Source of the DNA: an uncultured Candidatus Actinomarina sp. | Lineage (GTDB): Bacteria > Actinomycetota > Acidimicrobiia > Actinomarinales > Actinomarinaceae | Assembly: GCA_902521955.1 (NCBI GenBank) | Contig: CABYTP010000004.1 | Location: forward strand, 21,969-85,968 | DNA length: 64,000 nt | Direction of reading: 5' to 3' | Part shown: positions 1 to 52,366 of the stretch, piece after piece | Numbering within the stretch: position 1 is the stretch's first letter | Layout: each line of letters opens with the position of its first letter | The notes under the pieces: generated by a model | Told to the model about the DNA's origin: nothing | Databases searched by the model: none | What the model saw: only the letters and a program-made list of their open reading frames with translations | Position numbers and translations under genes: made by a program

Positions 1-903
1 TCCAGCCCATAAGATTGGTGTATTTGCAAAATATCCTCCACTTATTTGTTGATTTAGATAAAGACCAATTGCAATAGTTCCAGCAATGCTGACTAGTGCA
101 GTAATTAATACTTGACCAGGTGTCATTAGTCCTACTTGAATTACTCTACTTCCACCGTTGAATGGGCTCGCCACTTTGTTTATTTCATCAGCATTTGATG
201 TGTGATCAAAGTAATCATTAGATGCATTCGTAGCTACTTGAGCCAATGATGCACCAGCTAAAACAAGCCAAAACATCTTCCATGACCAAGATGAATCAAA
301 ACCTGAATCTTTGAGATCGCTCCAAGCTACAGCCGAACCAATAAAGATAGGAGCAAAAGTAGCTGTAAGAAAGGGAGCACGGATAGTCCTCAACCAAAGA
401 CCAATTCTTTTCAATCCTAGTTTGAAAGCCATTTTTACTGCAGATGTTTTGTTGGATGGAATAGTTTTCCATTCAAATTTTTCTTCCTGATAGAAATTAA
501 CATATTTAATTGTTGTAGGTTTCACTATGTAATATCCAACAACATCATTTGCAATAAGAAAGTCATCTTCCATAAATTCTTTGAATGCATCTGTAGTTTC
601 TAAAACAAGGTTGTAAGCTTTTTTCTTTTCTTCCTCATCTTTTATTTTGTAACACTCCCCATCAATTTGTAAGCCTTCAATTCCTTCTTGGCCTTTTGGC
701 CATATTACAACGTGAACACGTGGGTTTAACCTTATTTGTTCAGCTTTTCTTGTTGGGTGGAATGTGAAGAATACTAAATCTTCACCATCTCTACTAAAAA
801 ATACGGATGCACCAGAGGAGTTACCTCCGACACTAGTAGCAATAAACATTCGATCAGCTGAATCTAATACATTCTCTATTTTTTTATCTAAAACATCACT
901 CAT
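1..903 (-). CDS. 5'-partial CDS (start at 903, runs off the window). N-terminal PNPOx-like split-barrel (FMN/F420-binding type) domain fused to a UbiA-superfamily prenyltransferase, MenA-like.
   Basis: Manual minus-strand translation: MSDVLDKKIENVLDSADRMFIATSVGGNSSGASVFFSRDGEDLVFFTFHPTRKAEQIRLNPRVHVVIWPKG... continuing into TM segments with the Asp-rich motif NASNDYFDHTSNADEINKVASPFNGGSRVIQVGLMTPGQV, which fits the MenA NDYxD...D...R.GP.R pattern. No stop is reached before position 1. Confidence 0.55.
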   Translation of the reverse strand, partial: MSDVLDKKIENVLDSADRMFIATSVGGNSSGASVFFSRDGEDLVFFTFHPTRKAEQIRLNPRVHVVIWPKGQEGIEGLQIDGECYKIKDEEEKKKAYNLVLETTDAFKEFMEDDFLIANDVVGYYIVKPTTIKYVNFYQEEKFEWKTIPSNKTSAVKMAFKLGLKRIGLWLRTIRAPFLTATFAPIFIGSAVAWSDLKDSGFDSSWSWKMFWLVLAGASLAQVATNASNDYFDHTSNADEINKVASPFNGGSRVIQVGLMTPGQVLITALVSIAGTIAIGLYLNQQISGGYFANTPILWAG

Positions 904-981
904 AGATTAAACACTAATATGCTTGTGAAATAATGCACAAAGTCCTTTAGATTATTTTTTAAATATTTAAATCATTTATGA

Positions 982-2757
982 TTGGAATACATGTTTAAAA
1001 TCTTTAAAACGCCCGAATTTAAAAAAGCTGTAAATTTTTATAAAGATGGCATAAAAGAAAATAGAAAAAGCTTTGTTATTTCGATGGGCTCAGCTGTGGT
1101 ATGGTGTTTTCTTATTGTTATTCAGCCTTACATCATTAAAAGAATTATTGATGATGCAATTGTTTTAGAAAATAGACAAATGTTAATTATATTAATTTCT
1201 TTCATGTTGATTGCAGGGTATTTACGTGCCTCAGCAATTGGAATTAGAAGATATTTCTCAATGCATGTTTCATTCAATGTTGAAGCGGGAATAAGAAATA
1301 GAATATTTACTCACATGCAGAAGTTGGCATACAATTACCATGATAAAGTTCCAACTGGTGAACTAATGGCAAGAGCTTCGAGTGACGCCTCTCAAGTAAG
1401 ACTTGCCTTTGCAATTGCACCATTAGCTACTGCAAACATATTACTTCTCATTATCCTAAGCATTACCTTATTAGGCTTAAGTCTACCGTTAGGAGCTTTA
1501 GTTCTTCTGTCCATTCCTGCTGTATTGTGGCTTGCTTCAAATTTTTCATCAAAGGCATTAGGAATTTCATTAAGAGTCAAAGAAGCAGAAGCACAAATGA
1601 CTACAGAAGTTGAAGAGCAACTTGGAGGTATTAGGGTTGTTAAAGCTTTTGGAAATGAGGACCTTGCTGCATCTAAAGTAGAAACAGCAATTTCAAGTAT
1701 TTATAATACATCGCTTGAATATCTTAATCTAAGAACAAAATTTGTTCCTATGTTTGAATTAATCCCCATGGTGATAACCTTGCTTGTTTTACTTCTAGGA
1801 GGATATTTATCAATAAATGAATTCATAACATTAGGAGATTTCATAGCTTTTACCCAATATGTCTTCTTGTTGTTATGGCCATTACGAATAACAGCGTGGT
1901 TTTTATCTGAGATACCATCAAGTGTAACTGCTGGAAATAGGATTTTAGATTTACTTAATGAGTCACCAAGTATTGTTGATGGCAGTTCAGATGAAACTTT
2001 TCCAGAGACAGGAAATGGAAGTTTAAAATTTTCCAATGTGAATTTTCGCTATGGTGATGACAAGATATTTGACAATTTGTCATTTGAGATAGAAGGTAAG
2101 AAAACAGTTGCAATTGTTGGTTCTACTGGTTCTGGTAAATCAACTTTGGCTTATTTGCTTCCAAGACTTTATGATATTGAATCAGGAAAAATTGAAATTG
2201 ATGGGGTTGATATTCATAACGTAAAACTTGATGAATTGAGATCACAGGTAAGTCTTGCTTTTGAAGAAAGCTTTCTTTTTTCAAACTCAGCTAGAGAAAA
2301 TATTTCACTTGGATCAGATAAAGCTTCCCAGGATCAGATTGAAAATGCTGCACTTATTGCCAGAGCACATGAGTTTATAGCTCAGTTACCTGAGTCATAT
2401 GAAACAAAAGTTGGTGAAAGGGGTTATGGACTTTCTGGAGGACAGAGACAGCGAATTGCTCTAGCACGAGCAATATTACGTAAACCAAGAATTTTAATAC
2501 TTGATGATGCTCTATCTGCTGTTGATGCCTCTACCGAAGAACAAATCAGAAGTGAACTTAAACAAGTCATGTCAAACATGACTACGTTAATAATTACAAA
2601 CAGGGTTCCAACTATTGAGCTTTGTGATGAAGTTATATTTCTTGAAAATGGACAAGTTAGAGGACAGGGTAGCCACAATAAATTGATTGAAGAAATTGAA
2701 AGTTATAAATCATTATTTTTAGAAAGTCAGACAAGTGGTTCTAAAAATGACAGATAA
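982..2757 (+). CDS. ABC transporter, fused permease/ATPase (type I exporter half-transporter), subunit 1 of a heterodimer
   Basis: 591 aa with six N-terminal TM helices. Walker A GSTGSGKST and canonical signature LSGGQRQR. Walker B is ILILDDA, with Asp in place of the catalytic Glu. Confidence 0.85.
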   Translation: MEYMFKIFKTPEFKKAVNFYKDGIKENRKSFVISMGSAVVWCFLIVIQPYIIKRIIDDAIVLENRQMLIILISFMLIAGYLRASAIGIRRYFSMHVSFNVEAGIRNRIFTHMQKLAYNYHDKVPTGELMARASSDASQVRLAFAIAPLATANILLLIILSITLLGLSLPLGALVLLSIPAVLWLASNFSSKALGISLRVKEAEAQMTTEVEEQLGGIRVVKAFGNEDLAASKVETAISSIYNTSLEYLNLRTKFVPMFELIPMVITLLVLLLGGYLSINEFITLGDFIAFTQYVFLLLWPLRITAWFLSEIPSSVTAGNRILDLLNESPSIVDGSSDETFPETGNGSLKFSNVNFRYGDDKIFDNLSFEIEGKKTVAIVGSTGSGKSTLAYLLPRLYDIESGKIEIDGVDIHNVKLDELRSQVSLAFEESFLFSNSARENISLGSDKASQDQIENAALIARAHEFIAQLPESYETKVGERGYGLSGGQRQRIALARAILRKPRILILDDALSAVDASTEEQIRSELKQVMSNMTTLIITNRVPTIELCDEVIFLENGQVRGQGSHNKLIEEIESYKSLFLESQTSGSKNDR

Positions 2758-4468
2758 TGTTTTTTTACGATCAATTAGGTTAGTTCCTGAAATACGAAGA
2801 CCTTTTCTTTGGAGCTCTTTAATCGCAATGGCTGGTTCTGCTTTAAGGATGGTTGGTCCGCAATTGATATCAAGGGGTATTGATGAGGGTGTTTTAAAGT
2901 CTAATTACTCGTACTTGTTAGAACAGAGTCTTTATTACTTTATCACATTAGTTCTACTCTATTTTGTTGCGAGCAAAGCTCTTCTTGCAATTGGATTAGT
3001 TGGTGAATCTTATGTTAAAAGTGTAAGAGAAAAATTATTTAGACACCTCTCTTCTTTAGATATTAGTTATTTTGAAAAAAATAAAACTGGCGTTTTGGTT
3101 GCTCGTATGACATCAGATATGCAGAGTTTAAATGAATTTGCTCGTGAAGGTGCAAGCAGTGTAATTACGGCTTTACTTACTATTTTTGGAGCTACAATTG
3201 CTGTATTTCTAGTAGATGCCCAATTAGCACTACTATCATTTTTGATTTTGCCATTACTGGGTATAGCGACGCGAATATTTCGTAGTCATGCTGATAAAGC
3301 TTATTGGTCAATACGTGAATGGATTGGTCAAGTCCTTTCATCTCTTCAGGAAGGTATTTCAGGAGTAAGAATTATACAGGCGTACTCAGATGAAAAAACA
3401 CAGTTCGATAGATTTAAAAATGTAAATGATCAGCACTTCAAAGCTAATATGCAATCTGCAAAAAACATTGCTATCTACTTTCCTTTTTTAGAAATTACTA
3501 GAGTGACCTCTATTGCTGTAGTTATTTGGTTTGCTTCAATAAGAATCAATGAGGGATCTTTATCTGTTGGTGAATTGGTAGCGTTATTGTTTTATCTAAA
3601 TTATTTTTTTGATCCCCTTATTCAACTTTCGTTTAACTATGATGTACTTCGTTCGGCAGGGTCTTCTATGAAAAAAGTATTTTCAATATTAGATGAAGAA
3701 CAAGTATTAAGTAAGACAGGTGATATCGAACCTAAAATGGAATCAAACAAAGTTATTGAATTTACAAATGTAGATTTTTCTTACGGTAGAGATACAGTCT
3801 TACACAATGTAAACATTTCAATTAACAAAGGAGAAAAGATTGCAATTGTAGGCGAAACTGGAGCAGGTAAAAGCACGATTGCAAAACTAATACTTAGATT
3901 TTATTTACCAACTAAGGGGGATGTAAAATTCTATGGTGAATCATCTAAAGATGTTACACAAAGATGGGCAAGGAAAAACATCGCCTATGTTCCTCAAGAA
4001 AGTTTTCTATTTAGAGGGTCCATTAGGGATAATCTAATTTATTCAGATCCAGAAAATATAGAGTTAGAAAAAGAACTCGCTGAAATAGGTGTTTTACAGT
4101 GGTTTGATAGATATGAAAATGGATTAAACCAAAATGTAGGAGAGAGAGGTTCAAATGTTTCTGCAGGTGAAAGACAATTCATAGCATTACTGAGAGCAGT
4201 TCTTGCTAGGAGACAAATTATTGTCTTTGATGAAGCTACAGCAAATTTAGATATTGAATCTGAAAATTCAATTCTTGAGGCAACGGATACGCTTTTAGAT
4301 TACCAAACATCAATTGTTATAGCTCACAGACTAGAAACCATATTAAATTCAGAAAAAATTATTGTTATGGATGAGGGTAAACTAGTTGGATTTGATAACC
4401 ATAAAAATTTATTAAACACAAATGATATATACAAAGACCTTTTTTCAGCATGGGATTTAGTTAACTAG
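2747..4468 (+). CDS. ABC transporter, fused permease/ATPase, subunit 2 of a heterodimer
   Basis: Walker A GETGAGKST, degenerate signature VSAGERQF, canonical Walker B IIVFDEATANLD. The ATG at 2747 overlaps the upstream stop (ATGACAGATAA). The track's alternative GTG start is at 2735. Confidence 0.85.
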   Translation: MTDNVFLRSIRLVPEIRRPFLWSSLIAMAGSALRMVGPQLISRGIDEGVLKSNYSYLLEQSLYYFITLVLLYFVASKALLAIGLVGESYVKSVREKLFRHLSSLDISYFEKNKTGVLVARMTSDMQSLNEFAREGASSVITALLTIFGATIAVFLVDAQLALLSFLILPLLGIATRIFRSHADKAYWSIREWIGQVLSSLQEGISGVRIIQAYSDEKTQFDRFKNVNDQHFKANMQSAKNIAIYFPFLEITRVTSIAVVIWFASIRINEGSLSVGELVALLFYLNYFFDPLIQLSFNYDVLRSAGSSMKKVFSILDEEQVLSKTGDIEPKMESNKVIEFTNVDFSYGRDTVLHNVNISINKGEKIAIVGETGAGKSTIAKLILRFYLPTKGDVKFYGESSKDVTQRWARKNIAYVPQESFLFRGSIRDNLIYSDPENIELEKELAEIGVLQWFDRYENGLNQNVGERGSNVSAGERQFIALLRAVLARRQIIVFDEATANLDIESENSILEATDTLLDYQTSIVIAHRLETILNSEKIIVMDEGKLVGFDNHKNLLNTNDIYKDLFSAWDLVN

Positions 4469-5925: not shown

Positions 5926-6351
5926 GTAAATAATTGAATCTTTAATTTCACTAACTTCTTCAAGCTCTAAAACTTTCTCTGTATAATTTCCTTCATCAAT
6001 GTAATTAATATATATAAGGTTTTCTATTGATAAAATTTCCTTCGAAGGCTCTTTCATTGATATCCAAATAATTCTTTTTAATGAAGAATTATGTATTGAA
6101 TTTAAAAATACTTTTCGTAATTCACCGTCTATATCTTCATGATAAATTCCACAATAAGCTCCCTCTGATGCAGTAGAAATGTGACTGTCGTCTTCAATAT
6201 TGCCTATTGCTTTCTTTCCAGGTAGTTTTTCAATAAAATCCATTGGTAATTTGTCAGATACAAAAATTCTCAAATCTTGATTTTGAACATCTAACTTTTG
6301 TAATAACTTTTCATGCTCTTTATTTGTAGGATTTATAAAAATTGCTGGCAT
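5917..6351 (-). CDS. hypothetical acidic protein, 144 aa
   Basis: Clean ORF convergent with the M23 peptidase gene. I recognise no motifs. Codon usage matches the neighbouring genes. Confidence 0.4.
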   Translation of the reverse strand: MPAIFINPTNKEHEKLLQKLDVQNQDLRIFVSDKLPMDFIEKLPGKKAIGNIEDDSHISTASEGAYCGIYHEDIDGELRKVFLNSIHNSSLKRIIWISMKEPSKEILSIENLIYINYIDEGNYTEKVLELEEVSEIKDSIIYLK

Positions 6352-6386
6352 ATTTTTAAGATTAACTCAAAAACAGAAATAAATTA

Positions 6387-6409
6387 AATCAATACTTTTC
6401 CGATTGATT
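6387..6409. promoter_or_regulatory. Candidate operator: inverted repeat AATCAAT-N9-ATTGATT about 25 bp upstream of sufB
   Basis: Read directly from the sequence, 6386-6410. It lies in the 81-bp divergent intergenic region before the suf operon. Confidence 0.3.
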
Positions 6410-6432
6410 CAGTACCTTATTATCATAAGAGT

Positions 6433-7842
6433 ATGGCAAATGTTGAAATTGATTTAGGTAAATATTCATTAGGTTGGTCTGATCCTGAAAAGAACGTATT
6501 TAAGCCTGAAAAGGGATTAAATGAAGACATAATACGTAAAATGTCTGAGATAAAGGAAGAACCCGAATGGATGCTTGATTTTAGACTAAAAGCATATAAA
6601 AGATTTTTGGATAAACCTATGCCCGAATGGGTTGCAAAAGAAAAATTAGATTCTCTAGATTTTGATGATATTTACTATTATATAAAGCCTACAGAAGATC
6701 AAGCTGACTCATGGGATATGGTTCCAGATGAAATTAAGGAAACTTATGAAAAACTTGGAATTCCAGAAGCTGAAAGAAGTTACTTGGCTGGTGTTACAGC
6801 TCAATATGAAAGTGAAGTTGTTTACCACAGAAATAGAGAAGACCTTGAACAACTCGGAGTTATTTTCTGCGATATGGATACAGCAGTCAGAGAATATCCT
6901 GAATTAGTCAAAGAATATTTTGGGACTGTAATACCTCCTGGTGATAATAAATTTGCTGCACTAAATTCAGCAGTATGGTCGGGTGGATCGTTTATTTACG
7001 TTCCTAAAGGTGTTCATATTGAAGACCCTCTACAAGCTTATTTCAGAATTAATGCTGAAAACATGGGTCAGTTTGAAAGAACATTAATTATTGTAGACGA
7101 AGGAGCATCTGTTCATTATATAGAAGGATGTTCTGCACCTGTTTACACAACAGATGCTCTTCATTCTGCTGTTGTTGAAATAATAGTTAAACCTTCAGGT
7201 ACATGTAGGTATACAACAATACAAAATTGGTCTAACGACGTTTTCAATCTTGTTACAAAAAGAGCGCAAGCTTTTGCTAATGCAACAATGGAGTGGATTG
7301 ACGCAAATATTGGCTCTTCCCTAACTGTTAAATATCCATCCGTATATTTAATGGAACCTGGTGCCCATGGTGAAGTATTATCCGTTGCTTTTGCGAATGC
7401 AGGCCAACACCAAGATACTGGAGCAAAAATGGTACATCTTGCACCAGATACAACTTCATTAATTACATCTAAATCAATATCTAAAGGTGGGGGTAGAGGA
7501 GCATATAGAGGTTTAGTCAAAGTAGAAGATGGAGCTGAAACAGCAAAGAGTTTTGTAAGATGTGACGCATTAATTCTTGATGATGATTCAAGATCTGATA
7601 CTTACCCATATATGGAAATTGAAGAGGCATCAGCTGAAATCGGCCATGAAGCTACGGTATCAAAAGTAGGTGAAGATCAATTATTTTACCTAATGAGTAG
7701 AGGGCTTTCTGAATCTGAAGCAACATCTATGATCGTTGCTGGTTTTGTTGAAGAATTTACAAAAACTCTACCTATGGAATATGCTATGGAGTTCAACCAA
7801 CTAATTGAATTAAATATGATTGAAGCCGGCGCAGTCGGTTAG
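6433..7842 (+). CDS. sufB: Fe-S cluster assembly scaffold protein SufB
   Basis: 469 aa. Conserved SufB blocks: ...[15 protein letters not shown]... and ...[23 protein letters not shown]... Confidence 0.9.
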
Positions 7843-11828: not shown

Positions 11829-12181
11829 ATTGATATCTGCCAAATAGCCTTTATCCACTTGTCTTTAATCTCATTTCTGGCAAATACAACTATGCCAATA
11901 GCTCCTTCTTCATAGACTTCCCTCATAGAAGTTCCAGTAGTGTAAACATCATCAGCTATTAATAAAGGATCTTGTTCATTATTAGTACAGTAAGGCTTTA
12001 ATGCTTTTTCAAATGGTATTCCACCTCTGGGTATTCCTTTAACATCTCTAAAGGTTAATCTCTCACTCACAATTTTTGCCAGAGCATCATAATCACCATC
12101 TGTTAGAGCATCGCACTCTACTTTCCAAGTTAAAGGAAGACCAGCATGAGAAATAAAATCTTCTTTTATAAATAAATTCAT
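11825..12181 (-). CDS. minimal type-I phosphoribosyltransferase, OPRTase-like (118 aa), last gene of the pyr operon
   Basis: PRPP-binding motif LLIADDVYTTGTSMREV. Sits at the operon position where pyrE would be, but lacks the usual N-terminal hood region. Confidence 0.45.
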   Translation of the reverse strand: MNLFIKEDFISHAGLPLTWKVECDALTDGDYDALAKIVSERLTFRDVKGIPRGGIPFEKALKPYCTNNEQDPLLIADDVYTTGTSMREVYEEGAIGIVVFARNEIKDKWIKAIWQISI

Positions 12182-12855
12182 ATCAACTTTCTTAATTTTA
12201 ATGGATTAAAACAAACAGTTCCAAAACTAACATGATCTGCTCCAATATTTTTATAGTACTCTATATCTTCATTAGAATCTATGCCCCCACCTGCAATAAT
12301 CTCTATTTTGGGAAAATTAGATTTTAAGTACTTTATAAATTTTGTTGTATAGGGTATTAATTCTTTTCCGCTTAGGCCACCCTTGTCAACAGGAAGTGTG
12401 TTACATGCATGAATTTGTTTAAACTTAAACGTTTCAATGAACTTGTCTAATTCTTTAAAAGTTGTAACAGGTGAAATTTTACCTATAAACCATTCTCTTG
12501 TATCTGGAGCAAATTCTTCAATACCCTCTGTATAATGTTTGTCTATATTAGGACATGACATATTGATTTCAATATTAAAATTTTCTGGTATTTTTTCAGC
12601 AAATATTTTCCAATCATCTTTTTCAATTCCTGCGATAGAAAATACCTCATCCCCTCTATATTTAGTAATCCCATATTCAACTCCAGGATTTCTAAGTCCA
12701 ATTTTGTTTACCCATCCCTTTTTTGTATAACGTAAAGTTTTAGCAATTTGAATGATTCGCCCAGTTCTCTTCTCGACAGTCCAGCTACCAGAAACAGAAA
12801 TCGTATTCTTAGTTTTTACATAATTACCAAAAGGTGCAGCAATAAATTTTTTCAT
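12178..12855 (-). CDS. pyrD: dihydroorotate dehydrogenase-like protein, unusually short (225 aa)
   Basis: Dihydroorotate dehydrogenase (DHOD) motifs NKIGLRNPG (N..GL.N.G), NMSCPNI (catalytic Cys loop) and C-terminal FMN site IAGGGIDSNED. About 80 aa shorter than class-1 DHODs. Confidence 0.6.
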   Translation of the reverse strand: MKKFIAAPFGNYVKTKNTISVSGSWTVEKRTGRIIQIAKTLRYTKKGWVNKIGLRNPGVEYGITKYRGDEVFSIAGIEKDDWKIFAEKIPENFNIEINMSCPNIDKHYTEGIEEFAPDTREWFIGKISPVTTFKELDKFIETFKFKQIHACNTLPVDKGGLSGKELIPYTTKFIKYLKSNFPKIEIIAGGGIDSNEDIEYYKNIGADHVSFGTVCFNPLKLRKLI

Positions 12856-13490
12856 ATGTTTAATTCATTTATTACATAGTCAAGATTATTTCTAATAGAT
12901 CTCCCCATAACAATATAAGAAGCTCCATCAGCTATTGCTTTTTCTGGTGTAGTTATATTCTTTTGGTCATTCGATAAATCATCTTTTAATCTAATACCTG
13001 GACTTACAATTAAGTCAAAAATATTAATTGATTTAGTTATTTCTGATGGTGGGCAAATTACCCCATCTACGTTCGATTCTTTTGCTAATTCAAATTCTAA
13101 ATGCACCCTTTCACTTGTTTCTTCATCGATGGCTTTACTAGTAAGAGCTGAACTGACTCCAAGTAATTTTAAGCTTTCTTTTTTATTTAATGATGCTTCA
13201 TACAAAGCCTCTTGAGAGGATGAAATGTGAATAGTTAAGTAATCAGCTCCTATATTTCCGGCACTTTTTGTTGCTTCCTTTACAGTATTAGGAATGTCGT
13301 GAAGTTTTAAATCAAGGAATACATTCCAACCTTCCTTTTTAAGATGAGTTACAACTTTAGGACCTTCTGATATAAACATTTCGAGGCCTACTTTCACTCC
13401 ATAAATTTTATTTTTTAATTTTTTTAATTCAAATTCAAATTCATTTAACGATTTGCCATCTAATGCAAAAAATATTGGTTTAACTGACAT
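12852..13490 (-). CDS. pyrF: orotidine-5'-phosphate decarboxylase
   Basis: [13 protein letters not shown] (D.K..DIPNT active-site motif). ATG at 13490 ([12 protein letters not shown]), 21 nt inside the track ORF. Confidence 0.8.
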
Positions 13491-16400
13491 TTTGTATTGC
13501 CTCCATATCATCTAACGTATTTTCTTGTTCTGAAAATGCTTTTATAAAAGCTTGGGCTTCTCTAACTGATGAGACTACAGCAACTCCTGTCTCGTGAGAC
13601 AGTCTTCTAATCTTCCAACCATCTGTATATTCATTTGCAAATGTTGGGGTATTGATTACTAATGAAACTAAATTTTCTTGAATAATTGTAAGAGAGGTTG
13701 GTGATTTATCATTTGCTCTACCGACAATCGTTGAAGAAATATTATGCTTTTTCAGATAAGCTTCTGTCCCTTCAGTTGCAAAAATTTTGAAACCAAATTC
13801 AGAATAATTTTTTGCAATTTCAACAAAGTTTGGTTTTTCTTTGTCACTTAGTGATATAAAGACACCTTTTTGTTTTTTATTAATTAAAACTCCCGCTGCA
13901 GCATAAGCTTTATTAAGCGCAGTTCCAAAATTTGATCCAATTCCTAAAACCTCACCGGTTGCTTTCATTTCAGGACCTAGCATTGTATCTTCTGCGGGAA
14001 ATCTTGACCATGGAAAAATCGCTTTTTTAATAGCTATTTTTTTTGTTGAACCATTCAAATAATCAGTTTCTTTTTTTACAAAATCCAAAGAATGACCAAG
14101 CATTAATAAGGTACCAGCTTTAATTATTTGATTTCCAGTTACCTTTGCAACAAAAGGCATTGTTCTTGATGCTCTAGGGTTTGCTTCTAAGATATATAGA
14201 GTATCTTCTTTCACTGCAAATTGAATATTCAAAAGCCCTTTAACATTTAAAGCTTTTGCTAGCTGTATACTTTTTTGTTCAATTTCATTAATAATTTTTT
14301 TGTCAATACTAAAAGGTGGAAGGACTGCTGTTGAATCTCCACTATGAACACCCGCTGGCTCTAGGTGTTCAAGGACTCCAGCTATGAATACCTCTTTACC
14401 ATCAGATATTAAATCTACGTCCACCTCCACTGTATCTGTTAAAAATTGATCAACAAGTAATGGACCAGAATTAAAAGGATTACCATCGTCATCTGCGCTT
14501 GCTAGTATCGAAAGATAATTTTTTAGTTCAGTATCATTTTGCACTACTCTCATTGCTCTTCCGCCTAATACATAGCTTGGTCTTAATAGGACTGGATATC
14601 CAATTCCATTTACGGAATCTATAAGTTCATTTTCATTTGAAGCAATTTGTGAAATTGGTTGATTAATATCTTGTGATTCACAAAGTTTTTGAAATAAGTT
14701 ACGATCTTCTGTTGCATCAATAACTTCTAATGATGAACCTGCAATATTATATCCAGCTTCGTGTATTTTTTTTGCAAGTTTTAGTGGAGTCTGTCCGCCA
14801 AGTTGAATGATTACTGAATCAGGTTGCTCTCTTTTTAGTACTGAACTTACTTCATCCCATGAAAGGGGTTCAAAATAAAGCTTGTCGGCTGTGTCATAAT
14901 CAGTAGATACAGTCTCTGGATTAGAGTTTATCATTATTGATTCATATTTGTTTTCTTTAAGTGATTCAACCCCATGAACACAGCAGTAGTCGAATTCAAT
15001 TCCTTGACCAATTCTGTTTGGGCCCGAGCCAATAACAACAACCTTTTTGTTATTGGAAGTATGATCGTCATCTTCTGATCCATTAGTTGAGTAGAGGTAT
15101 GGAGTTTTCGATTCAAACTCAGCAGAGCAAGTATCAACTAATTTATAAACTCTATTATCTTTAAGACTATTTTTTTTATCTTTTGAATCTAGATCCTCAT
15201 CTGTCCAACCTAGCATTTTCAGTATTGATGTGGGGGTAGATTCTGGAGTAACGTTAAAACTTTTTTCTATTTCATTTAAAAACCATACATCAATACTTGA
15301 AAGATTTGCTATTTTTTCAATATCCCAATTTCTGCGTATTCCTTCAAGAATTGCAAAGATTCTCCTCGGTCTGGGTGTCTTGATTTCTTCTTCTAAGTGT
15401 GCTTTTGATAAATTAATAAAACGATTATCTATATTTCTTATTCCAGTTTTTCCAATTTCAAGAGATCTAATCGCTTTTGTTAAACTTTCTGTGAATGTTG
15501 ATGCTATTGACATTACTTCACCCACACTTTGCATCGATGTGCCTAGAACATCATCTGTAGATGGAAATTTTGGAAAGTCAAACCTGGGAATTTTCACAAC
15601 AACATAATCCTGAACAGGCTCAAAGCTAGCTGGAGTAGAGCCAGTTATATCATTTTTAAGTTCTGTTAAGTTATATCCTACTGCAAGTAATGCTGCAAAT
15701 TTGGCAATTGGAAACCCTGTGGCTTTAGATGCTAGAGCTGATGACCTGGAAACTCTCGGATTCATTTCAATTATTCTTCTTTCACCATTTAGTGGATTAA
15801 CAGCAAATTGTACATTACTGCCACCTGTTGCGATGCCTATAGTATCGAGACAGAGTAACGCCTCATCTCTCATTTCTTGATACTCTTTATCAGATAAGGT
15901 TTGGATCGGGGCAATAGTTATCGAGTCACCTGTATGAATTCCCATAGGGTCAAAATTTTCGATTCCACAAACAATTACGCCATTACCATCTTGATCTCTC
16001 ATAACTTCAAGCTCAAATTCTTTCCATCCATAAACAGATTCCTCAATCAAGACCTCTTGTGTAGGGGATGCATTGAATGCTTCTTTTAGTTTGCTATTTA
16101 AATCTTTTTCGCTTTGTACTAATCCAGTTCCACCACCTCCAAGAATATATGAAGGCCTGAGCATAAGAGGATATCCTATTTTCTTACTAACATTAATTCC
16201 CTCTTGAATGGATCTGACATATTCTGCTTTGAGGGTTTTAATACCAACATTTTCCATTGCATTTTTAAATTTCCATCGATTTTCTGCAACTTCAATAGAT
16301 TTTGATGAGGCCCCTAATAGTTTTATATTATTTTGTGCGAAAATATCACTCTCATCTAGTTCCATTGCGAGATTCAGTGCTGTTTGACCCCCTAAAGTTG

Positions 16401-16662
16401 GTAATACAGCATCAGGTTTTTCAATTTCTATTATTTTTTTAAGAAATTCAAACGTTAATGGCTCTATGTATGTTGCATCTGCCATTTTTGGATCTGTCAT
16501 TATTGTTGCTGGATTCGAGTTTACTAATATAATTCTGTACCCTTCATTTTTTAAAGCTTTTGCAGCTTGTGATCCTGAGTAGTCAAACTCACATGCTTGA
16601 CCAATCACTATGGGTCCTGATCCAATAATTAGAATGCTCTTTATTTCTTTATTTTTTGGCAT
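13480..16662 (-). CDS. carB: carbamoyl-phosphate synthase large subunit
   Basis: 1060 aa with duplicated ATP-grasp halves, plus oligomerisation and MGS-like domains. Typical CarB N-terminus [30 protein letters not shown]. Confidence 0.95.
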
Positions 16663-17749
16663 ACTGTTCTTCCATCATTTCAACAAAAGGGTTAAATATT
16701 TGTAATCCATCAGATGTTCCTGGACCAGATTCAGGATGAAACTGAACAGAGTATGCCATTGAATCCCATAGGCTAATACCTTCATTACTACCATCATTTA
16801 AATTACTTGCATAATTTTCTATATTTCCAAAATCTTTGTGTACTAAATTTTCATCAAATTTTTCTACTGCAAATCCATGATTTTGGGCAGTTATTAATGC
16901 TTTTTTAATTCCCTTGATTTTTACAGGATGATTAGAACCATGATGTCCAAACTCCAATTTATTTACCTTTAGTCCGCAGGCAAGGCTTAATATTTGATGA
17001 CCTAAACAAATTCCAAATATCGGTATTTTGCCTATTAAGTTATTTATCATTTTTATTACATTTATAAGAGATCTTGGATCACCTGGACCATTTGAAATTA
17101 AAAGCCCTTTTAGATTCATTGAGAGAATATCTTCTGCAGACGAATCTGGTTTTATAGATACAACCTGATAATTTAAATTTTCTAAGACATTTACAATACT
17201 CTTTTTGGCACCCAAATCTAATATACCAACCTTCCCCTCTGGTGCATTGCTACTGATGTCTAAATTTCCAGCTGTTAAGGCAGAGTCGTCTCCTAAAATG
17301 TTTGTCGCAGAATTAAGTAACTCAAGTAAATCATTTTTATCAATGTCTACACCCAAAGCATACATGCTAGTTCCACGATCACGTAAGTATTTAGTAATCG
17401 CTCTTACGTCAAACCCTCCACTGAATGGAATCTCATATTCAGCTAACCATGAAGTAAGAGCTTTTTGAGATCTCCACGAAGAGGGAGAATGACTAAATGT
17501 ATTTCCTACTGCAGCTTCAATCTTTGGTTTATTCGATTCAAAATCAATTTCTGATAGACCATAATTTCCTACATGAGAAGAGGTGAAGGTTACAATTTGA
17601 TTTATATATGATGGATCACTTAAGATTTCAACGAACCCTGTCATTGCTGTATTAAAAATTAACTCACCCGTTGCTGGTTTAAAAGAATATTCTGACCAAC
17701 CAGTGAATTCATCTCCATTTTTATTTACAAGTAAGGTTTTTTTATACAT
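16649..17749 (-). CDS. carA: carbamoyl-phosphate synthase small (glutamine amidotransferase) subunit
   Basis: GATase catalytic triad region GICLGHQ and the CarA N-domain. ATG at 17749 (MYKKTLLV). Confidence 0.9.
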
Positions 17750-18800
17750 ATAAATCAACTTTCTTGATACTCACCTCAAAATTTTCAAATGCTGAATTTT
17801 TATATTCAGATTTAGTATTAAACAATTCTGTTACTTCAATCCATTTATTATGAAATGGTTCATTTATTTCATAACCCAGATTATTCAAAATTTCCCTGGG
17901 CTTGTCTACTAGGAAAACTATTAACTCATCTAATGTAAAAATGTTCGAGGAATATAGAGCTGGAAAAGCAGATTCAAGTCCTACAACACCTCGAGCTGCT
18001 TCTTTAAATTTTATATTCTTAGCCACTTCAGGGTGAGGAGCGTGATCAGTTGCGATAGCATCTATTATTCCAGTCTTAAGGCCGCTGATGAGAGATTTCC
18101 TATCTTCTTCAGAACGAATTGGAGGATACATTTTGTATTTTCCATTTGTTATATCTAAATTTTCATTATTGATAAGTAAATGATGGGGAGTTACCTCAGC
18201 AGTCACAGGTAATTGTTTATTTTTGGCCTGTTCAATTAATTCAACACTCTTTCTCGAAGAAAGGTGTTGAGCATGGTATCTAGTATTATATTTCTCAACT
18301 AAGTCAAGATCTCTTTTAAGTATTTCAAACTCTTCTGAGTCGGGAATTAATATTAGTTCACTTGAATTACTGGGTGGAGCTATATCACCAGGATTTGAGA
18401 AGCAGCTTTTTTCACAGTGTTGAAAAATTGCCCCACCTAATTCTGCAACTATCTTGAATGCTTCATCTGCTAGTGAGTCTTCTATTAAAGATTTGCCATC
18501 ATCTGAAAAAATTGTAATTCCATTTTTAATAAATGACTTAAAATCTACTAGCTCTTTTCCATTTAGATTTTTTGAAAGAGCACCAACCCTGTGAACATTT
18601 AAGTTTAATGAGCTATCAATTTCTATTGCATAATTGAGTGATTCAATATCGTCAATTACAATTTCAGAATTAGGCATTGCTAATATATCCGAGTACCCAC
18701 CATTAAGTGCTGATTTTTCAATATCTTTTGCTGGGAAAAATGATTTATCAGGATACCTTGTATGTGTATGTAAGTCTAAGAACGCGGGAACTTTTATCAT
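17742..18800 (-). CDS. pyrC: dihydroorotase-like amidohydrolase
   Basis: Metal-binding DLHTHTR near the N-terminus and a later DHAPH. Its position between pyrB and carA matches actinobacterial pyr operons. 352 aa, short for PyrC. Confidence 0.7.
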   Translation of the reverse strand: MIKVPAFLDLHTHTRYPDKSFFPAKDIEKSALNGGYSDILAMPNSEIVIDDIESLNYAIEIDSSLNLNVHRVGALSKNLNGKELVDFKSFIKNGITIFSDDGKSLIEDSLADEAFKIVAELGGAIFQHCEKSCFSNPGDIAPPSNSSELILIPDSEEFEILKRDLDLVEKYNTRYHAQHLSSRKSVELIEQAKNKQLPVTAEVTPHHLLINNENLDITNGKYKMYPPIRSEEDRKSLISGLKTGIIDAIATDHAPHPEVAKNIKFKEAARGVVGLESAFPALYSSNIFTLDELIVFLVDKPREILNNLGYEINEPFHNKWIEVTELFNTKSEYKNSAFENFEVSIKKVDLYV

Positions 18801-19699
18801 ATGAGCTCAAGTACGAACTTGTAAGCCGCAATTCTTGATCCAATTCCCAAATGAAGTTGTTCTTGGTACTTAAATTTATTATGAAGAGATGCTTCTTCAG
18901 ATATTTCAATCCCTACATTAATTGGCATGGGGTGAAGCACTATTAAATCATCAGGTGAATTATCTAGAATATCTTCACTGATTTGAAAATGTTTTATATA
19001 TTGTTCAAAATTAAATTCTTTTATATCTTTAATTCTTTCCTTTTGTACTCTAAGTAACTCAATAGCACTTGTATTGCTTACTACTTCATCCCAAGAGTTA
19101 TATATCTGTAAATTACTAAGATCATCAGGTAATAATTCATCACTTGCGTAAATACCAACTTTAAATCCTAATTTTTCTAAAAGCTCTCTTCCTGATTCAA
19201 AAACTCGAGAATGTTTTAAGTCACCAACATATGTAATTGGTATATCTCTATCTAACTTATTAAATTTTTGTAAAGTTGCAACGTCTATAATCGCCTGAGT
19301 CGGATGTGAGCTATTTCCAAAACCCGCACTAATTACTGATAAATCATCTATTTTTTCGTAGTCTTGAAAATTATTCTCTTTTGTCCTTATCACTAAAACC
19401 TCAATACCTAAAGCTTTGTAAGTTTCTATTTCATGTTGTAAATCTTCACCTTTAGATTTTGCAGAAATAAGATCAGTCATTTCTACTATTTCTATACCTG
19501 ATTTTTTAGCTGCTAATGAAAAAGAAAGCCTTGTTCTGGTTGAACCTTCATCAAATTTTAAAAGAGCATATGAATTGACTTTCTCAATATTATTATTTTC
19601 TATTTTTAGTGTTGTATCAATTAGTTTTTCTAACTCCTGTTTCTCTATGTTTTTAAAATTTAAAAAATGCTTCATTTTATGTAATTTCAATCTTGTCAA
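18797..19699 (-). CDS. pyrB: aspartate carbamoyltransferase catalytic subunit
   Basis: STRTR motif (GSTRTRLSF) and HPMP (HPLP-type) motif. Confidence 0.9.
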   Translation of the reverse strand: MTRLKLHKMKHFLNFKNIEKQELEKLIDTTLKIENNNIEKVNSYALLKFDEGSTRTRLSFSLAAKKSGIEIVEMTDLISAKSKGEDLQHEIETYKALGIEVLVIRTKENNFQDYEKIDDLSVISAGFGNSSHPTQAIIDVATLQKFNKLDRDIPITYVGDLKHSRVFESGRELLEKLGFKVGIYASDELLPDDLSNLQIYNSWDEVVSNTSAIELLRVQKERIKDIKEFNFEQYIKHFQISEDILDNSPDDLIVLHPMPINVGIEISEEASLHNKFKYQEQLHLGIGSRIAAYKFVLELI

Positions 19700-20183
19700 T
19701 ATTGTCGATTTCTTCTAAAAATACTGATACATAGTCATTCTCATTTGTAGGAATATTTCTTCCAATAAACTTTGGAGATATAGGTAACTCTCTATGTCCT
19801 CGGTCCACTAGACATAAAAGTGAAATTAGTTTCGGTCTTCCAGAGTGCATTACAGCTTCGATAGATGCTCTGAGCGTTCTTCCTGTATAGATTACATCAT
19901 CAATTAAAATCACATCTCTGTCTTTAGGATTAATTTTTAATAATGTTTTTTCAATATCTTCATTGATGTCATCTCTAAATGGAATATAGTCTACAGTATC
20001 TAAGTCATGAGAAAAGTTAAAATTTTTTAGATTATCGGATATTCTTTTAGCAATTAAATCACCTCTTCTTGGAATGCCAATTAAAAGGGGATTATCGTGT
20101 TGGGACTCAGTAATTTCTTTACTAAGACGAAAAAGAATTTTTTCTATTTCCAAACTATTCCTTCTGATACTCACAGGTATCAA
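19677..20183 (-). CDS. pyrR: pyrimidine operon regulator / uracil phosphoribosyltransferase PyrR
   Basis: PRTase loop ILIDDVIYTGRTLRA and N-terminus LLIGIPRRGD. There is no in-frame ATG, so the start must be TTG at 20183 or another non-ATG codon. Confidence 0.8.
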   Translation of the reverse strand: MIPVSIRRNSLEIEKILFRLSKEITESQHDNPLLIGIPRRGDLIAKRISDNLKNFNFSHDLDTVDYIPFRDDINEDIEKTLLKINPKDRDVILIDDVIYTGRTLRASIEAVMHSGRPKLISLLCLVDRGHRELPISPKFIGRNIPTNENDYVSVFLEEIDNIDKIEIT

Positions 20184-30308: not shown

Positions 30309-31673
30309 TTGAAAAAATTAACCATAATTGGTGGAGGTCCGGCAGGATATGCTGCTGCTCTCTATGCAACTAATTTCGATATAGAAGTTACACTGATTGA
30401 GTCAGATACTCTAGGTGGAACCTGTTTAAATCGAGGTTGCATACCAGCAAAGTACTGGCTTCATGTAGCTGAACTTAATCACGAAATAGATACCTCAAAC
30501 GAATTTGGTATTGAAATTAAAGATAAAAAAATTAACTGGCAACAAACTGCCCAGAAGAGATTTGATACTGTTAATAAATTAGTTAGTGGTATTGGAATGT
30601 TACTTAAGTCCAAAAAGGTAACAGTAGTAGAAGGCTGGGGGTCAATTAAAGATAAAAATACAGTAAATGTAAAAAAGCAAGATGGTGATGAGGTTGATAT
30701 TTATTCAGATTTTATTCTTATAGCAACCGGATCTAAACCACGAGAAATACCAAATATTAATGTTGATGAAAAATTTATTATTACATCTGATACAGCACTG
30801 AATTGGGAAGAGCCACCAAAAAAAGTTTGCGTAATTGGTGCAGGAGCAATTGGTTGTGAATTTGCCAGTCTGTTAAATGATTTGGGTTCGGAAGTTACAG
30901 TCGTCGAATTAGCAAAAGAAATACTTCCAGGCTTAGATAAAAGAACATCAGGCGAGCTAAGAAAACAACTTACTAAACGTGGTGTTGATTTCAAACTATC
31001 CACTTCAGTGACAGAAATAAAAGATTCAAAAGTAGTTTTCTCAGATGAAGAAAAAGCTGAATTTGACTGTGTACTAGTTGCCGTAGGTAGATCTCCACTT
31101 ACTGAAAATATTGGAATAGATCAAAACGGCATTAAGTCAAGTAACGGTTACTTGGAGGTAAATTTAGAAACTCTTCAGACTAATGTATCAAATATTTATG
31201 CTTTGGGGGATATAGTTTCTGGAACTCCTCAACTTGCACATGTTGCTTTTGCAGAAGCAATTAGTGCTGTTACCCATATTGCTACAGGTAAAAGTAGTCC
31301 AATTAATTACAAAGCTATACCGTATGTAGTCTATACAAGACCGGAGCTTGCTGAAGTAGGTATAAACTCTGACACAGCTAAAGAAAAAGGTATAAACATA
31401 AAACAAGCTCAACATAGCTTTGCAGGTATAGGTAGGGCATTAATTCAAAACCAAAACCAAGGTATCGTTAAAGTTTACTCAGAAGAAGATGGACCTATCA
31501 TTGGGGCAAGCGTTTGTGGACCTGCTGCTGGAGAGATGATACATGAACTTATGTATATGGTAGGTTGGGAAGCCTTACCAAGTGAAGCTTCAGAATTCAT
31601 ACATGCACATCCAACATTGAGTGAAGCTATTGGAGAATCATTATTAAGTTTGAATGGTAGGGGGTTACATTAA
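30309..31673 (+). CDS. lpd: dihydrolipoyl dehydrogenase (E3)
   Basis: Redox-active disulfide GGTCLNRGCIPAK, two Rossmann GxGxxG sites, and C-terminal dimerisation HAHPTLSE. Forced TTG start. Confidence 0.9.
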   Translation: MKKLTIIGGGPAGYAAALYATNFDIEVTLIESDTLGGTCLNRGCIPAKYWLHVAELNHEIDTSNEFGIEIKDKKINWQQTAQKRFDTVNKLVSGIGMLLKSKKVTVVEGWGSIKDKNTVNVKKQDGDEVDIYSDFILIATGSKPREIPNINVDEKFIITSDTALNWEEPPKKVCVIGAGAIGCEFASLLNDLGSEVTVVELAKEILPGLDKRTSGELRKQLTKRGVDFKLSTSVTEIKDSKVVFSDEEKAEFDCVLVAVGRSPLTENIGIDQNGIKSSNGYLEVNLETLQTNVSNIYALGDIVSGTPQLAHVAFAEAISAVTHIATGKSSPINYKAIPYVVYTRPELAEVGINSDTAKEKGINIKQAQHSFAGIGRALIQNQNQGIVKVYSEEDGPIIGASVCGPAAGEMIHELMYMVGWEALPSEASEFIHAHPTLSEAIGESLLSLNGRGLH

Positions 31674-33683: not shown

Positions 33684-34973
33684 ATGAGTCAAATAGTGAC
33701 AATGCCACAGCTTGGCGAAACAGTAACAGAAGGTACAATTCTTCGTTGGTTAGTTAAGGTAGGTGACGAAGTTAAGGAAGATGATCCAATATTGGAAATC
33801 TCTACTGACAAAGTTGATACAGAAGTACCCTCACCATTTAACGGAACAGTCAGTAATTTATTAGTAGAAGAAGGTGAAACTGTAGAAGTAGGCGCTTCTC
33901 TGCTTGAATTGGATGGAGATAAAACAAATACAAATGATACTCCTCTAAAAGAAGAGCCAAAAGAAGAAACAAACGAAGAGAATGTGCAAGATACAAGTCC
34001 TAAGGTTGCTGAGGTACAAAATCATAATATTTCGAAGACACCTAATGAGAAACAAAATCTTAAATTATCACCTGTTGTCAGAAAACTTGCTTCTGAACAT
34101 AATATAGATATAGAAAAAGTTCAGGGTACCGGTAAAGACGGAAGGATTAAAAGACAAGATATTGAAAAAATTATTTCATCAGGTCAGGGTATGATTTCAA
34201 CAGAAAAAATTGCTGAACAGCCTCCACAAGAAAAAGAGAAAGAAATGTTAACTAAAGAGTCTTCAAATAATATTTCAAGACTAAGGAAAAGAATTGCTGA
34301 AAACATGATTATCTCAAAGCAAACTTCAGCACATGTGATGACTTCTATTGAGGTAGATTTTGAGAATATTGAAATTGTAAGAGCAAAACATAAAGCAAAA
34401 TTTAAAGAAGAAAATGGCTTTTCATTAACTTACCTACCTTTCATCTCCCTTGCTACTGTCTCAGCATTGAGGGAGTACCCCGTAGTAAATAGTTCTTTTG
34501 ATTTAGAAAACGGCTTACATGAAATTCATAACCATATCAACTTAGGAATTGCTGTTGACTTAAATCAACAGGGATTATTGGTCGGCACTTTGCAAGAGGC
34601 TGATTCGTTTAATTTAAAAGGGATAGCAAGAAAAATTTCGGAGACTTCCAAATTACTGAGAGATGGAAAATATGGCTTAGATGATGTAAGCGGAAGTACT
34701 TTTACTATATCTAATAATGGGTCATTTAATTCATTTTTAACATCCCCAATAATCAATCAACCAAATGTTGCAATCCTTTCAACAGAGTCAGTAAAGAAAA
34801 GACCAGTTGTTGTTCAAGCACAAGATGGATCTGATTCTATCGCAATAAGACACACGGGTATTTTGAGTATTACATGGGACCACAGGGTATTTGATGGTTC
34901 CGTAGCATTATTATTTCTTAATTTTATTAAGGAAAGGTTAGAGAATGCTGATTGGTCACAGGAATTAGATTGA
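33684..34973 (+). CDS. dihydrolipoamide acyltransferase (E2)
   Basis: Lipoyl domain (EISTDKVDTEVPSP), a long Ala/Pro/Glu-rich linker, a peripheral subunit-binding domain, and the catalytic C-terminus with DHRVFDG. Confidence 0.85.
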   Translation: MSQIVTMPQLGETVTEGTILRWLVKVGDEVKEDDPILEISTDKVDTEVPSPFNGTVSNLLVEEGETVEVGASLLELDGDKTNTNDTPLKEEPKEETNEENVQDTSPKVAEVQNHNISKTPNEKQNLKLSPVVRKLASEHNIDIEKVQGTGKDGRIKRQDIEKIISSGQGMISTEKIAEQPPQEKEKEMLTKESSNNISRLRKRIAENMIISKQTSAHVMTSIEVDFENIEIVRAKHKAKFKEENGFSLTYLPFISLATVSALREYPVVNSSFDLENGLHEIHNHINLGIAVDLNQQGLLVGTLQEADSFNLKGIARKISETSKLLRDGKYGLDDVSGSTFTISNNGSFNSFLTSPIINQPNVAILSTESVKKRPVVVQAQDGSDSIAIRHTGILSITWDHRVFDGSVALLFLNFIKERLENADWSQELD

Positions 34974-51671: not shown

Positions 51672-52366
51672 AGAAAAAAATCTTCCTCATCTTCCCTTAT
51701 TAATTCACTTGCATTCTTTTTTGAATCTTCGTAATTCACACCTCTTACAATTGCAATAGGAACATTTAAAGTCTTTTCCATCACGAGCTCTGCAGCACTA
51801 GCAAGTTCGTCTATCACCGCTATTTCAGTTGCATTTAGCTCATTCTCAAAAGTGTCAGTTTTACCTATGTAGCTTGTAATAGGATTTATACCAGATGAGC
51901 CAATTGCAAAATTTACTTGTCCTTTTCTCCATGCTCTTCCAAAAGTGTCAGAAATAATGACAGCAATTTTCTTTCCAGTTAAATTCTCTAATTTCTTTCT
52001 AAAGGAATGTGCTGACTTATTTGGATCTTCTGGAAGAAGTAATACAGTATTTTTCTCAACATTCGATTTGTCAATACCGGCATTAGCACATATAAAGCCA
52101 TGTTTAGTTTTTGCTATTACTAGCTCACCTCTTTTTCTGACTATACGATTGACTTGACTGTTCAGCAAATCTTCAAAACTATGTTCATCAAGATTTCTAG
52201 ACATTCCTTCACTCTTAGAAACAATTTTCTGTGTAACAACGAATATATCTCCGTCCAAAATTTCTCTACTAGATTTCTTAAGAACATCATGAGTTAGATT
52301 TGCAAGGTTGTCTCCTTCTGAAACTTCAGGTAATCCAGATATTGGAATAATTGTTACTTCACCCAT
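51668..52366 (-). CDS. cofE: coenzyme F420-0:L-glutamate ligase (CofE / FbiB N-domain type)
   Basis: GDIFVVTQKIVSKSEGM matches the CofE core motif. 232 aa with no nitroreductase extension. Confidence 0.75.
   Translation of the reverse strand: MGEVTIIPISGLPEVSEGDNLANLTHDVLKKSSREILDGDIFVVTQKIVSKSEGMSRNLDEHSFEDLLNSQVNRIVRKRGELVIAKTKHGFICANAGIDKSNVEKNTVLLLPEDPNKSAHSFRKKLENLTGKKIAVIISDTFGRAWRKGQVNFAIGSSGINPITSYIGKTDTFENELNATEIAVIDELASAAELVMEKTLNVPIAIVRGVNYEDSKKNASELIREDEEDFFL

Follow-up and report, generated by a model that had tools for sequence, protein, structure and literature searches.

A PNPOx-type split-barrel domain fused to a MenA-like membrane prenyltransferase in Candidatus Actinomarina and other bacteria

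A two-domain gene at the left edge of the window

The window analysed here is a stretch of 64,000 nucleotides (nt; 33% GC) from an uncultured Candidatus Actinomarina sp. (NCBI GenBank assembly GCA_902521955.1, contig CABYTP010000004.1, positions 21,969 to 85,968 of the forward strand), and its first 903 nt hold, on the minus strand, most of a gene for a fusion protein. The encoded architecture is a presumably cytoplasmic split barrel of the PNPOx/general stress protein 26 (GSP26) type, a short basic linker, and a prenyltransferase of the UbiA fold with nine transmembrane (TM) helices in the inner membrane. An earlier note, made from the letters of the sequence, had described the translation as continuous, and it is: 301 codons without a stop run from the ATG at 903-901 to position 1, the start codon being fixed there by an in-frame TAA at 909-907. 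Because the open reading frame (ORF) is still open at the left edge, the gene is cut by the window boundary; the nearest orthologs among the matches listed, P0001 (96% identity) and P0002 (94%), are both 505 amino acids (aa) long, so that about 204 codons lie beyond the edge and the window holds the 5' three-fifths of a gene for a 505-aa two-domain protein. The strings MFIATSVGGNSSGASVFF, NPRVHVVIW, and NDYFDHTSNADE...SPFNGGSR (the last at nt 219-145) are all present in the window translation. A Pfam assignment, which the note had proposed as a check, finds PNPOx_N at aa 5-97 with 40.3 bits (gathering score 28.1; E 4.7e-10) and UbiA at aa 200-289 with 36.1 bits (gathering score 34.2; E 5.7e-9).

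The fusion is widespread. A protein search of 5.8 billion proteins retrieved 339 homologs; nearly all of the 120 matches listed are 486-525 aa long and carry PF01243 together with PF01040, and full-length orthologs match the window protein at E 1e-192 to 1e-93. A relative is encoded in at least 574 species genomes, as determined by a scan of one genome per species. Of the 85 loci that were fetched, 82 have the two-domain ORF intact, with a length of 480 aa or more; the remaining three comprise two that are truncated by contig ends and L079, at which the motif screen gave no ORF, yet tblastn covers residues 5-505. The same uninterrupted 505-codon ORF is found in about 40 independent Ca. Actinomarina single-cell and metagenome assemblies, the closest locus being that of the AG-333-E10 single-cell genome (L006; 93.5% nucleotide identity over 6 kb), which together with the GC content assigns the window to Ca. 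Actinomarina (OCS155). The intact ORF across independent assemblies rules out both an artefact of assembly and a pair of genes joined by a frameshift; the conservation in related genomes that the earlier note wished to see checked leaves no room for an intervening stop or frameshift, and we regard it as practically certain that the fusion is real and conserved. Apparent stand-alone copies of the amino-terminal domain among the representative hits were looked at, and every one examined proved to be a fragment that was frameshifted, chimeric, or truncated.

Beyond Actinomarina, the carriers include Calditrichota, Fidelibacterota/Marinimicrobia, KSB1, Gammaproteobacteria (among them the Olavius Gamma 3 symbiont), Anaerolineales, and metagenome-assembled genomes (MAGs) labelled Draconibacterium; a cultured carrier is the type strain Caldithrix abyssi DSM 13497 (WP_006929134.1 / UniRef100_H1XXG0). 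The versions from Calditrichota, Marinimicrobia, KSB1, Gammaproteobacteria, and Anaerolineales are 50-60% identical to the Actinomarina protein. Two of the MAGs labelled Draconibacterium (Bacteroidota; L041 and L042, match 6001-7515) carry copies that are 69-70% identical to it, far closer than those of Calditrichota or Marinimicrobia, which suggests either recent horizontal transfer or mis-binning.

Table 1. Features of the window at and around the fusion gene, and the F420 biosynthesis genes of the window
Feature	Position (nt)	Strand	Evidence
Fusion gene, first 301 of 505 codons	1..903	-	Continuous translation, ortholog lengths
PNPOx/GSP26-like split-barrel domain, aa 1-150, predicted to be cytoplasmic and probably to bind a flavin	454..903	-	Pfam, AlphaFold2 (AF2) model, Foldseek, profile match
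Motif FFTFHPTRKAEQI, aa 45-57, putative flavin ribityl/phosphate contact region	733..771	-	Invariant columns, 38-sequence alignment
Variable linker with Lys/Arg-rich helix into TM1, aa 151-175	379..453	-	AF2 helix 155-173
Start of UbiA-fold MenA-like membrane domain (TM1, TM2, HL2-3 loop, TM3, beginning of TM4), aa 176-301	1..378	-	Pfam, NCBIfam, AF2 model of ortholog
First Asp-rich motif and cap loop NDYFDHTSNADEINKVASPFNGGSR, aa 229-253	145..219	-	Read from sequence
Divergent intergenic region, 78 bp, between fusion gene and ABC exporter gene	904..981		ORF map
Two divergent MsbA-like ABC exporter genes, fused permease and ATPase	982-2757 and 2735-4468	+	NCBIfam, context only
cofE, F420-0:gamma-glutamyl ligase	51668-52366	-	E 8e-59
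cofD, 2-phospho-L-lactate transferase	52359-53255	-	E 6e-41

The split-barrel domain and its cofactor

The amino-terminal domain (window residues 1-158) was modelled by AF2 with a pLDDT of 93.7. A Foldseek search with this model returns 2i02, 3db0, and 3ec6 at TM-scores (to target) of 0.76-0.84; for the wider set of small PNPOx-like proteins, in which 3ba3 joins 2i02, 3db0, and 3ec6 (general stress protein 26), superposition gives TM-scores of 0.73-0.84. The model also superposes on the E. coli, human, and M. tuberculosis PNPOx, and its top fold matches are FMN/FAD-binding entries. Profile comparison with the Protein Data Bank finds 3ec6 (E 4e-8) and 3db0 (E 2.8e-7), the E. coli PNPOx structures 6ylz/1dnl/1g76 (E 0.0007-0.001), Rv2991 (1rfe) and 3f7e (E 0.004), PtHOZ1 9bl1 (E 0.0042), and HutZ 3tgv (E 0.041). 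The earlier assignment of the first ~150 residues to the PNPOx-family split barrels is upheld by these fold matches together with the Pfam score.

Alignment of 38 family sequences reveals eight invariant positions in the motif FFTFHPTRKAEQI (F45, F46, T47, F48, R52, K53, A54, and Q56). The motif aligns with Y82-T83 and S87-R88-K89 of E. coli PNPOx, such that F46-T47 corresponds to Y82-T83 and R52-K53 to R88-K89; Y82-T83 and R88-K89 are FMN contacts in the PNPOx structures. The domain has in common with the PNPOx-like/GSP26 proteins (COG3871; 3ec6, 3db0, 2i02; E. coli PNPOx 1dnl/1g76) both the fold and an (F/Y)T and (S/T)RK..Q...NP motif aligned with the PNPOx FMN contacts. It differs from them in an extra conserved helical segment, T104-L116 (TxAFxEFMDDxFL), and in lacking conserved equivalents of the R67/K72-type FMN contacts seen in PNPOx; further, the PNPOx/GSP26 proteins are soluble, stand-alone, and mostly without an assigned function, whereas the domain described here is tethered to a membrane prenyltransferase.

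Across phyla the amino-terminal domain has a mean pairwise identity of 61.6%, as against 56.1% in the membrane domain and 37% in the linker, indicating that the split barrel is under strong constraint and is more conserved than the membrane domain; at every invariant position the Actinomarina domain is the same as that of the other phyla. Since the residues at the putative cofactor contacts do not differ between phyla, the cofactor is expected to be common to all carriers, and FMN or FAD is favoured over F420. Judged by its sequence relatives, the domain is of the PNPOx/GSP26 (FMN/FAD) type and not of the Ddn/FDOR-A type, and on balance it probably binds a flavin-type cofactor.

The alternative of an F420-dependent enzyme goes back to the earlier note, which had stated, correctly, that the organism encodes cofD and cofE (both lie in the window, overlapping by 8 nt) and had drawn an analogy with Ddn/Fqr-type FDOR-A enzymes; the domain would then be an F420H2-dependent FDOR-type quinone reductase that couples the F420 pool to menaquinone biosynthesis. 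Membership of the split-barrel superfamily, which includes F420 enzymes, a plausible role in quinone reduction, and a host with cofD/cofE are indeed common to the Ddn/Fqr proteins (PF04075) and the fusion. Four of the 16 listed NCBIfam hits fall on the amino-terminal domain (pdxH, PRK05679, and F420-class PPOX models), and 1rfe and 3f7e, detectable in the profile search, are entries that we take to be mycobacterial split-barrel F420 FDORs, although the search output names no cofactor for them. The F420-class models TIGR03618, TIGR03666, and TIGR03667 reach 14.5-23.3 bits, below their cut-offs of 79-125 (TIGR03618, Rv1155_F420: E 2e-3 to 6e-5, 18-23 bits against 79). The Pfam scan gave no match of F420H2_quin_red (PF04075, the Ddn family) to the window protein at E<=1; no Ddn-type structure, and none that we take to be an F420-bound FDOR, is among the top 50 fold matches; and in the profile search the FMN/FAD-type relatives are ahead of 1rfe and 3f7e by four orders of magnitude. 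The supposed F420 link fares no better, since the same protein, with identical putative contact residues in Actinomarina, Calditrichota, Marinimicrobia, KSB1, and Gammaproteobacteria, occurs across phyla at 50-60% identity. To our knowledge most of the carrier phyla outside Actinomarina are not F420 producers, and this part of the argument draws on general knowledge of how F420 is distributed. The Ddn/Fqr analogy is therefore not sustained, and the F420 reading, which could apply to Actinomarina alone, is very improbable.

Heme-binding HugZ-like proteins (5bnc, 6m0a, and 6vna) also appear among the fold matches, at the level of fold only. No His, Cys, or Tyr that could serve as a ligand is conserved in the domain, to judge by the 38-sequence alignment and the distant relatives, and the invariant M111 is the sole candidate; heme is disfavoured because no conserved His is present, and a HugZ/HOZ-type identity was set aside.

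The membrane domain, its substrate and its operon partner

The other 12 of the 16 listed NCBIfam hits lie on the membrane part and comprise nine MenA models, PRK05951 and PRK12884 (generic prenyltransferases), and PRK12882 (GGGP geranylgeranyltransferase), with MenA the best; for the full-length orthologs, every significant membrane-domain hit is a MenA model. An AF2 model of the ortholog P0001, built from the 38-sequence alignment, has a pLDDT of 91, a pTM of 0.86, and nine long helices after residue 176; its Foldseek matches include archaeal DGGGP synthase (DGGGPS; 6m31, 7bpu) and, at a TM-score to target of 0.64, human UBIAD1 (8djk). The first Asp-rich motif, NDYFDHTSNAD, is at nt 219-187 of the window; the second, NQFQDxxxDxxxGK, lies outside the window and is read from the orthologs (NQFQDAPSDAAVGKNT). 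D230, D233, D239, D383, and D387 are invariant, so both Asp-rich diphosphate/Mg2+ motifs are intact. The membrane domain therefore resembles MenA (TIGR00751 / PRK06080; E. coli MenA, M. tuberculosis Rv0534c) in its UbiA fold with nine TM helices, in the presence and MenA-like spacing of both motifs (NDYxD...D, then N.F.D...D...GK.T), in having MenA models as its only significant hidden Markov model hits, in an adjoining UbiE/MenG-type gene, and in the label MenA that JGI gives to the fusion gene.

The differences are equally consistent. Besides the added domain and linker (about 165 aa) and C-terminal insertions, the orthologs P0001, P0034, P0046, and P0117 reach 75-81 bits with TIGR00751, whose cut-off is 102.15, and 102-113 bits with NF004751, whose cut-off is 264. 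Between aa 229 and 253 the invariant residues are N229, D230, D233, H234, D239, N242, P247, F248, G250, G251, S252, and R253, and the subfamily has invariants of its own: His234 after NDxxD, the PFNGGSR loop, and a C-terminal W..PYELL..N..H block (W463, P478, Y479, N485, H492). Stand-alone relatives of ~300 aa and 39-46% identity, drawn from a search of 1.84 billion cluster representatives, do pass the TIGR00751 menA cut-off (P0141, P0156, P0163, P0179, and P0204). Because the fusion proteins miss all MenA cut-offs while their nearest stand-alone relatives pass this one, the membrane domain is, on the evidence of its sequence, a distinct MenA-like subfamily beside bona fide MenA. The claim of the earlier note that it matches MenA thus stands as regards the UbiA superfamily and the closest family, and was too strong in the word "matches". 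That the domain is a quinone-type aromatic prenyltransferase we consider likely.

The gene next to the fusion points in the same direction. In 38 of the ~43 Actinomarina-type loci fetched, a methyltransferase gene of ~207 aa follows the fusion stop codon within 0-5 nt or overlaps it, by the ORF boundaries called here; the other Actinomarina-type loci reach a contig edge before it. The Actinomarina methyltransferase has its best matches in MenG/UbiE models and is below cut-off (TIGR01934, 125 against 158), and at five Marinimicrobia-type loci a clear Ubie_methyltran gene (up to 150 bits) is directly downstream, while at a sixth it is upstream. Operon linkage of the fusion gene to a UbiE/MenG-type methyltransferase is thus evident in two phyla, and across 41 loci from other phyla the UbiE methyltransferase is the only functionally related neighbour that recurs in different lineages. 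Its position directly downstream in both Actinomarina and Marinimicrobia supports a late step of naphthoquinone biosynthesis.

Failure to reach the MenA cut-offs means that the aromatic substrate could differ from 1,4-dihydroxy-2-naphthoate (DHNA). The enzyme might prenylate a salvaged naphthoquinone (menadione, as in UBIAD1, reduced first to menadiol), another aromatic compound, or the ligand of the split barrel itself (a flavin, or heme in the manner of heme O synthase), with the amino-terminal domain serving in substrate binding or delivery. In favour of this proposal are the missed cut-offs and the subfamily's own invariants (the His after NDxxD, PFNGGSR, and W..PYELL..N..H); no DHNA-pathway genes were found nearby at the 41 loci from other phyla, salvage would be plausible given the streamlined Actinomarina genomes, and 5bnc, 6m0a, and 6vna among the fold matches are heme-binding split barrels. 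Human UBIAD1, a MenA homolog, accepts a reduced naphthoquinol (menadiol); it is eukaryotic, lacks a fused redox domain, and is regulated through HMGCR binding. Against a different substrate, the NCBIfam search of the full-length orthologs gave no hit to heme O synthase or any other non-MenA UbiA family, save a marginal one to ChlG; the amino-terminal domain offers M111 as its only candidate in place of a conserved His, Cys, or Tyr ligand; and the adjoining UbiE/MenG methyltransferase fits a quinol product. We consider this explanation unlikely.

Two further features of the surroundings were observed. Past the methyltransferase gene and on the other strand (12149-15608 of locus L001 and equivalent Actinomarina positions) lie thioredoxin/ResA-like, DsbB-family, rhodopsin, and photolyase-like genes; DsbB-family disulfide oxidoreductases are quinone-dependent in known systems. 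In six Calditrichia loci (L002, L051, L054, L056, L073, and L080) the next genes downstream are pntA / pntA-4TM / pntB, for the proton-translocating NAD(P) transhydrogenase; this synteny, conserved within the lineage, might hint at NADPH supply or might be coincidence.

Possible roles of the fused domain, and other features of the window

Textbooks describe MenA as a stand-alone membrane enzyme and assign no dedicated redox step to bacterial menaquinone biosynthesis; plants and cyanobacteria need such a step, carried out by NDC1/NdbB. For the PNPOx-MenA-like fusion we propose that the putative flavin domain is a built-in quinone/quinol reductase serving prenylation or methylation; the explanation as a whole we hold to be plausible, if a little short of an even chance. 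As homology and operon context suggest, the membrane domain would transfer a polyprenyl chain onto a naphthoquinol head group, in the simplest case DHNA, and the prenylated product would be handed to the UbiE/MenG-type C-methyltransferase encoded directly downstream. The split barrel would hold a flavin, FMN or FAD being likelier than F420, and would act as a two-electron quinone reductase that keeps the head group (DHNA, not the oxidised quinone) and/or demethylmenaquinol reduced for prenylation and MenG-type methylation. It would sit on the active-site face of the membrane domain, the amino terminus and the Asp-rich loops both being predicted to be cytoplasmic because of UbiA-family topology and the basic linker (positive-inside rule).

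A precedent for the chemistry comes from phylloquinone synthesis, in which NDC1/NdbB is required because MENG strictly prefers a reduced substrate; the review that describes this (PMC13452876) also remarks that the reduced intermediates may become oxidised when conditions are aerobic. By the analogy that we propose, the split barrel may correspond in function to NDC1/NdbB, the type II NAD(P)H dehydrogenase of phylloquinone biosynthesis, which reduces the prenylated naphthoquinone for MenG methylation (PMC13452876); NDC1/NdbB has an unrelated two-Rossmann FAD fold and is a separate protein rather than a fused one. In its most specific form our proposal makes the fused split barrel a dedicated flavin-dependent naphthoquinone reductase within a self-contained machine that reduces and then prenylates, or prenylates and then keeps the product reduced for MenG, a bacterial counterpart of NDC1/NdbB which in Actinomarina might accept F420H2 as well; in this form it is speculative and rather unlikely. 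A catalytic reductase role of the domain as such is possible, though doubtful.

Several observations weigh against the reductase. The split barrel, at 150 aa, comes with no dedicated NAD(P)H domain, and its TRK motif is not kept in the distant fused relatives P0123, P0125, and P0132. In related MenA-like proteins PAS or other domains take the place of PNPOx, a pattern that looks regulatory and not catalytic. The full-length orthologs fall under every curated MenA equivalog cut-off, and no MenB/C/D/E/F or Mqn gene was found within ~4 kb of the fusion gene at the 41 loci from other phyla or among the 32 ORFs of the window that were scanned. Literature searches found no biochemical evidence for any member of the fusion family. 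Finally, Caldithrix abyssi, an anaerobe, carries the fusion, which weakens a rationale based purely on protection against oxygen.

The variety of amino-terminal extensions was surveyed in the 122 closest cluster representatives that have a complete UbiA domain. PNPOx-fused proteins make up 31 of these (including 8 core members added to the set) and stand-alone proteins 68, while 23 bear at the same position a different or unrecognisable extension of 120-200 aa. Most PNPOx-fused proteins form one large clade apart from the stand-alone MenA-type proteins, and a second small fused group lies elsewhere, in a rough neighbour-joining tree whose branching is approximate. Among individual MenA-like relatives, a PAS domain occupies the amino-terminal position in P0189, unassigned domains of ~145-185 aa occupy it in P0147 and P0207, and in P0160 a probable divergent split barrel is found there (hhalign E 2e-4). 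A LOV/FMN identity for the PAS domain was rejected for want of an NCRFL-type motif.

These extensions bear on the main rival to a reductase, according to which the split barrel is a sensor or regulatory module that binds flavin, heme, or a pathway intermediate and gates the MenA-like prenyltransferase in response to redox state or ligand, with no substrate turnover. The 23 representatives with other extensions, P0189, P0147, and P0207 among them, are in keeping with it, as repeated swapping of the amino-terminal module is typical of regulatory domains, and so are the loss of the TRK motif in distant fused relatives and the lack of an NAD(P)H-binding module in the protein. It is countered by the absence of any partner signalling element and by the strong conservation of the domain, putative cofactor contacts included, which is compatible with a sensor and a reductase alike; moreover, the known PNPOx-fold domains are for the most part enzymes or carriers of heme or flavin rather than sensors. 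We judge a sensor to be an unlikely explanation, and a built-in quinone reductase remains the reading that we prefer.

Searches of the literature found no paper that describes or tests a PNPOx-MenA-like fusion, and the papers found on Actinomarinales, the sister order UBA5794, and Caldithrix abyssi are silent on menaquinone synthesis genes. The architecture is on record under automatic database names ('UbiA family prenyltransferase', 'DHNA octaprenyltransferase / general stress protein 26', 'pyridoxamine 5'-phosphate oxidase-related FMN-binding protein'), and nobody appears to have studied the fusion. The earlier note had called the architecture unfamiliar from characterised MenA enzymes; this holds insofar as no paper characterising it was found, but the fusion is not rare and was already in public databases. 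A highly conserved flavin-type domain is joined to a prenyltransferase in at least 574 species, and Ca. Actinomarina and Marinimicrobia, which rank with the most abundant bacteria of the sea, are among them. This raises the hypothesis that these organisms actively control the redox state of the head group while it is prenylated and methylated, or that quinone synthesis is redox-regulated at this step; Caldithrix abyssi is a cultured carrier in which this can be tested. The fusion is also a functional lead for the orphan GSP26/COG3871 proteins: if the domain is a naphthoquinone reductase, Rosetta-stone logic would give the stand-alone members a role as redox partners of quinone biosynthesis. 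For annotation there is a warning, in that a 'MenA' label transferred by KEGG Orthology overlooks a conserved second domain.

Upstream of the fusion gene, the divergent ABC exporter genes have MsbA-like models as their best NCBIfam matches, below cut-off, and are noted as context only; a CydDC identity was considered and rejected, since the genes are MsbA-like and below all cut-offs. The same divergent layout is seen in the ORF maps of the Actinomarina loci L001, L011, L034, L043, and L045. A consensus scan of the intergenic region for promoters and terminators gave nothing above background.

Two other gene arrangements of the window were noted. On the minus strand, positions 12178-20183 hold a pyrimidine biosynthesis cluster consisting of a short DHO_dh-like ORF of 225 aa, pyrF, an ORF of 1060 aa (13480-16662) that is carB by presumption only, carA, an ORF of 352 aa (17742-18800), pyrB, and a pyrR-like PRTase gene; the 352-aa ORF has no Pfam hit at 1e-5 and sits in the usual position of pyrC. 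On the plus strand, a single ORF of 548 aa at 34952-36598 combines LplA-B_cat (LipB-type octanoyl/lipoyl transferase, aa 20-210) with LIAS_N/Radical_SAM (lipoyl synthase, aa 266-482), that is, a LipB-LipA fusion, and it lies directly downstream of the genes for the E3 (30309-31673) and E2 (33684-34973) components of a 2-oxoacid dehydrogenase complex.

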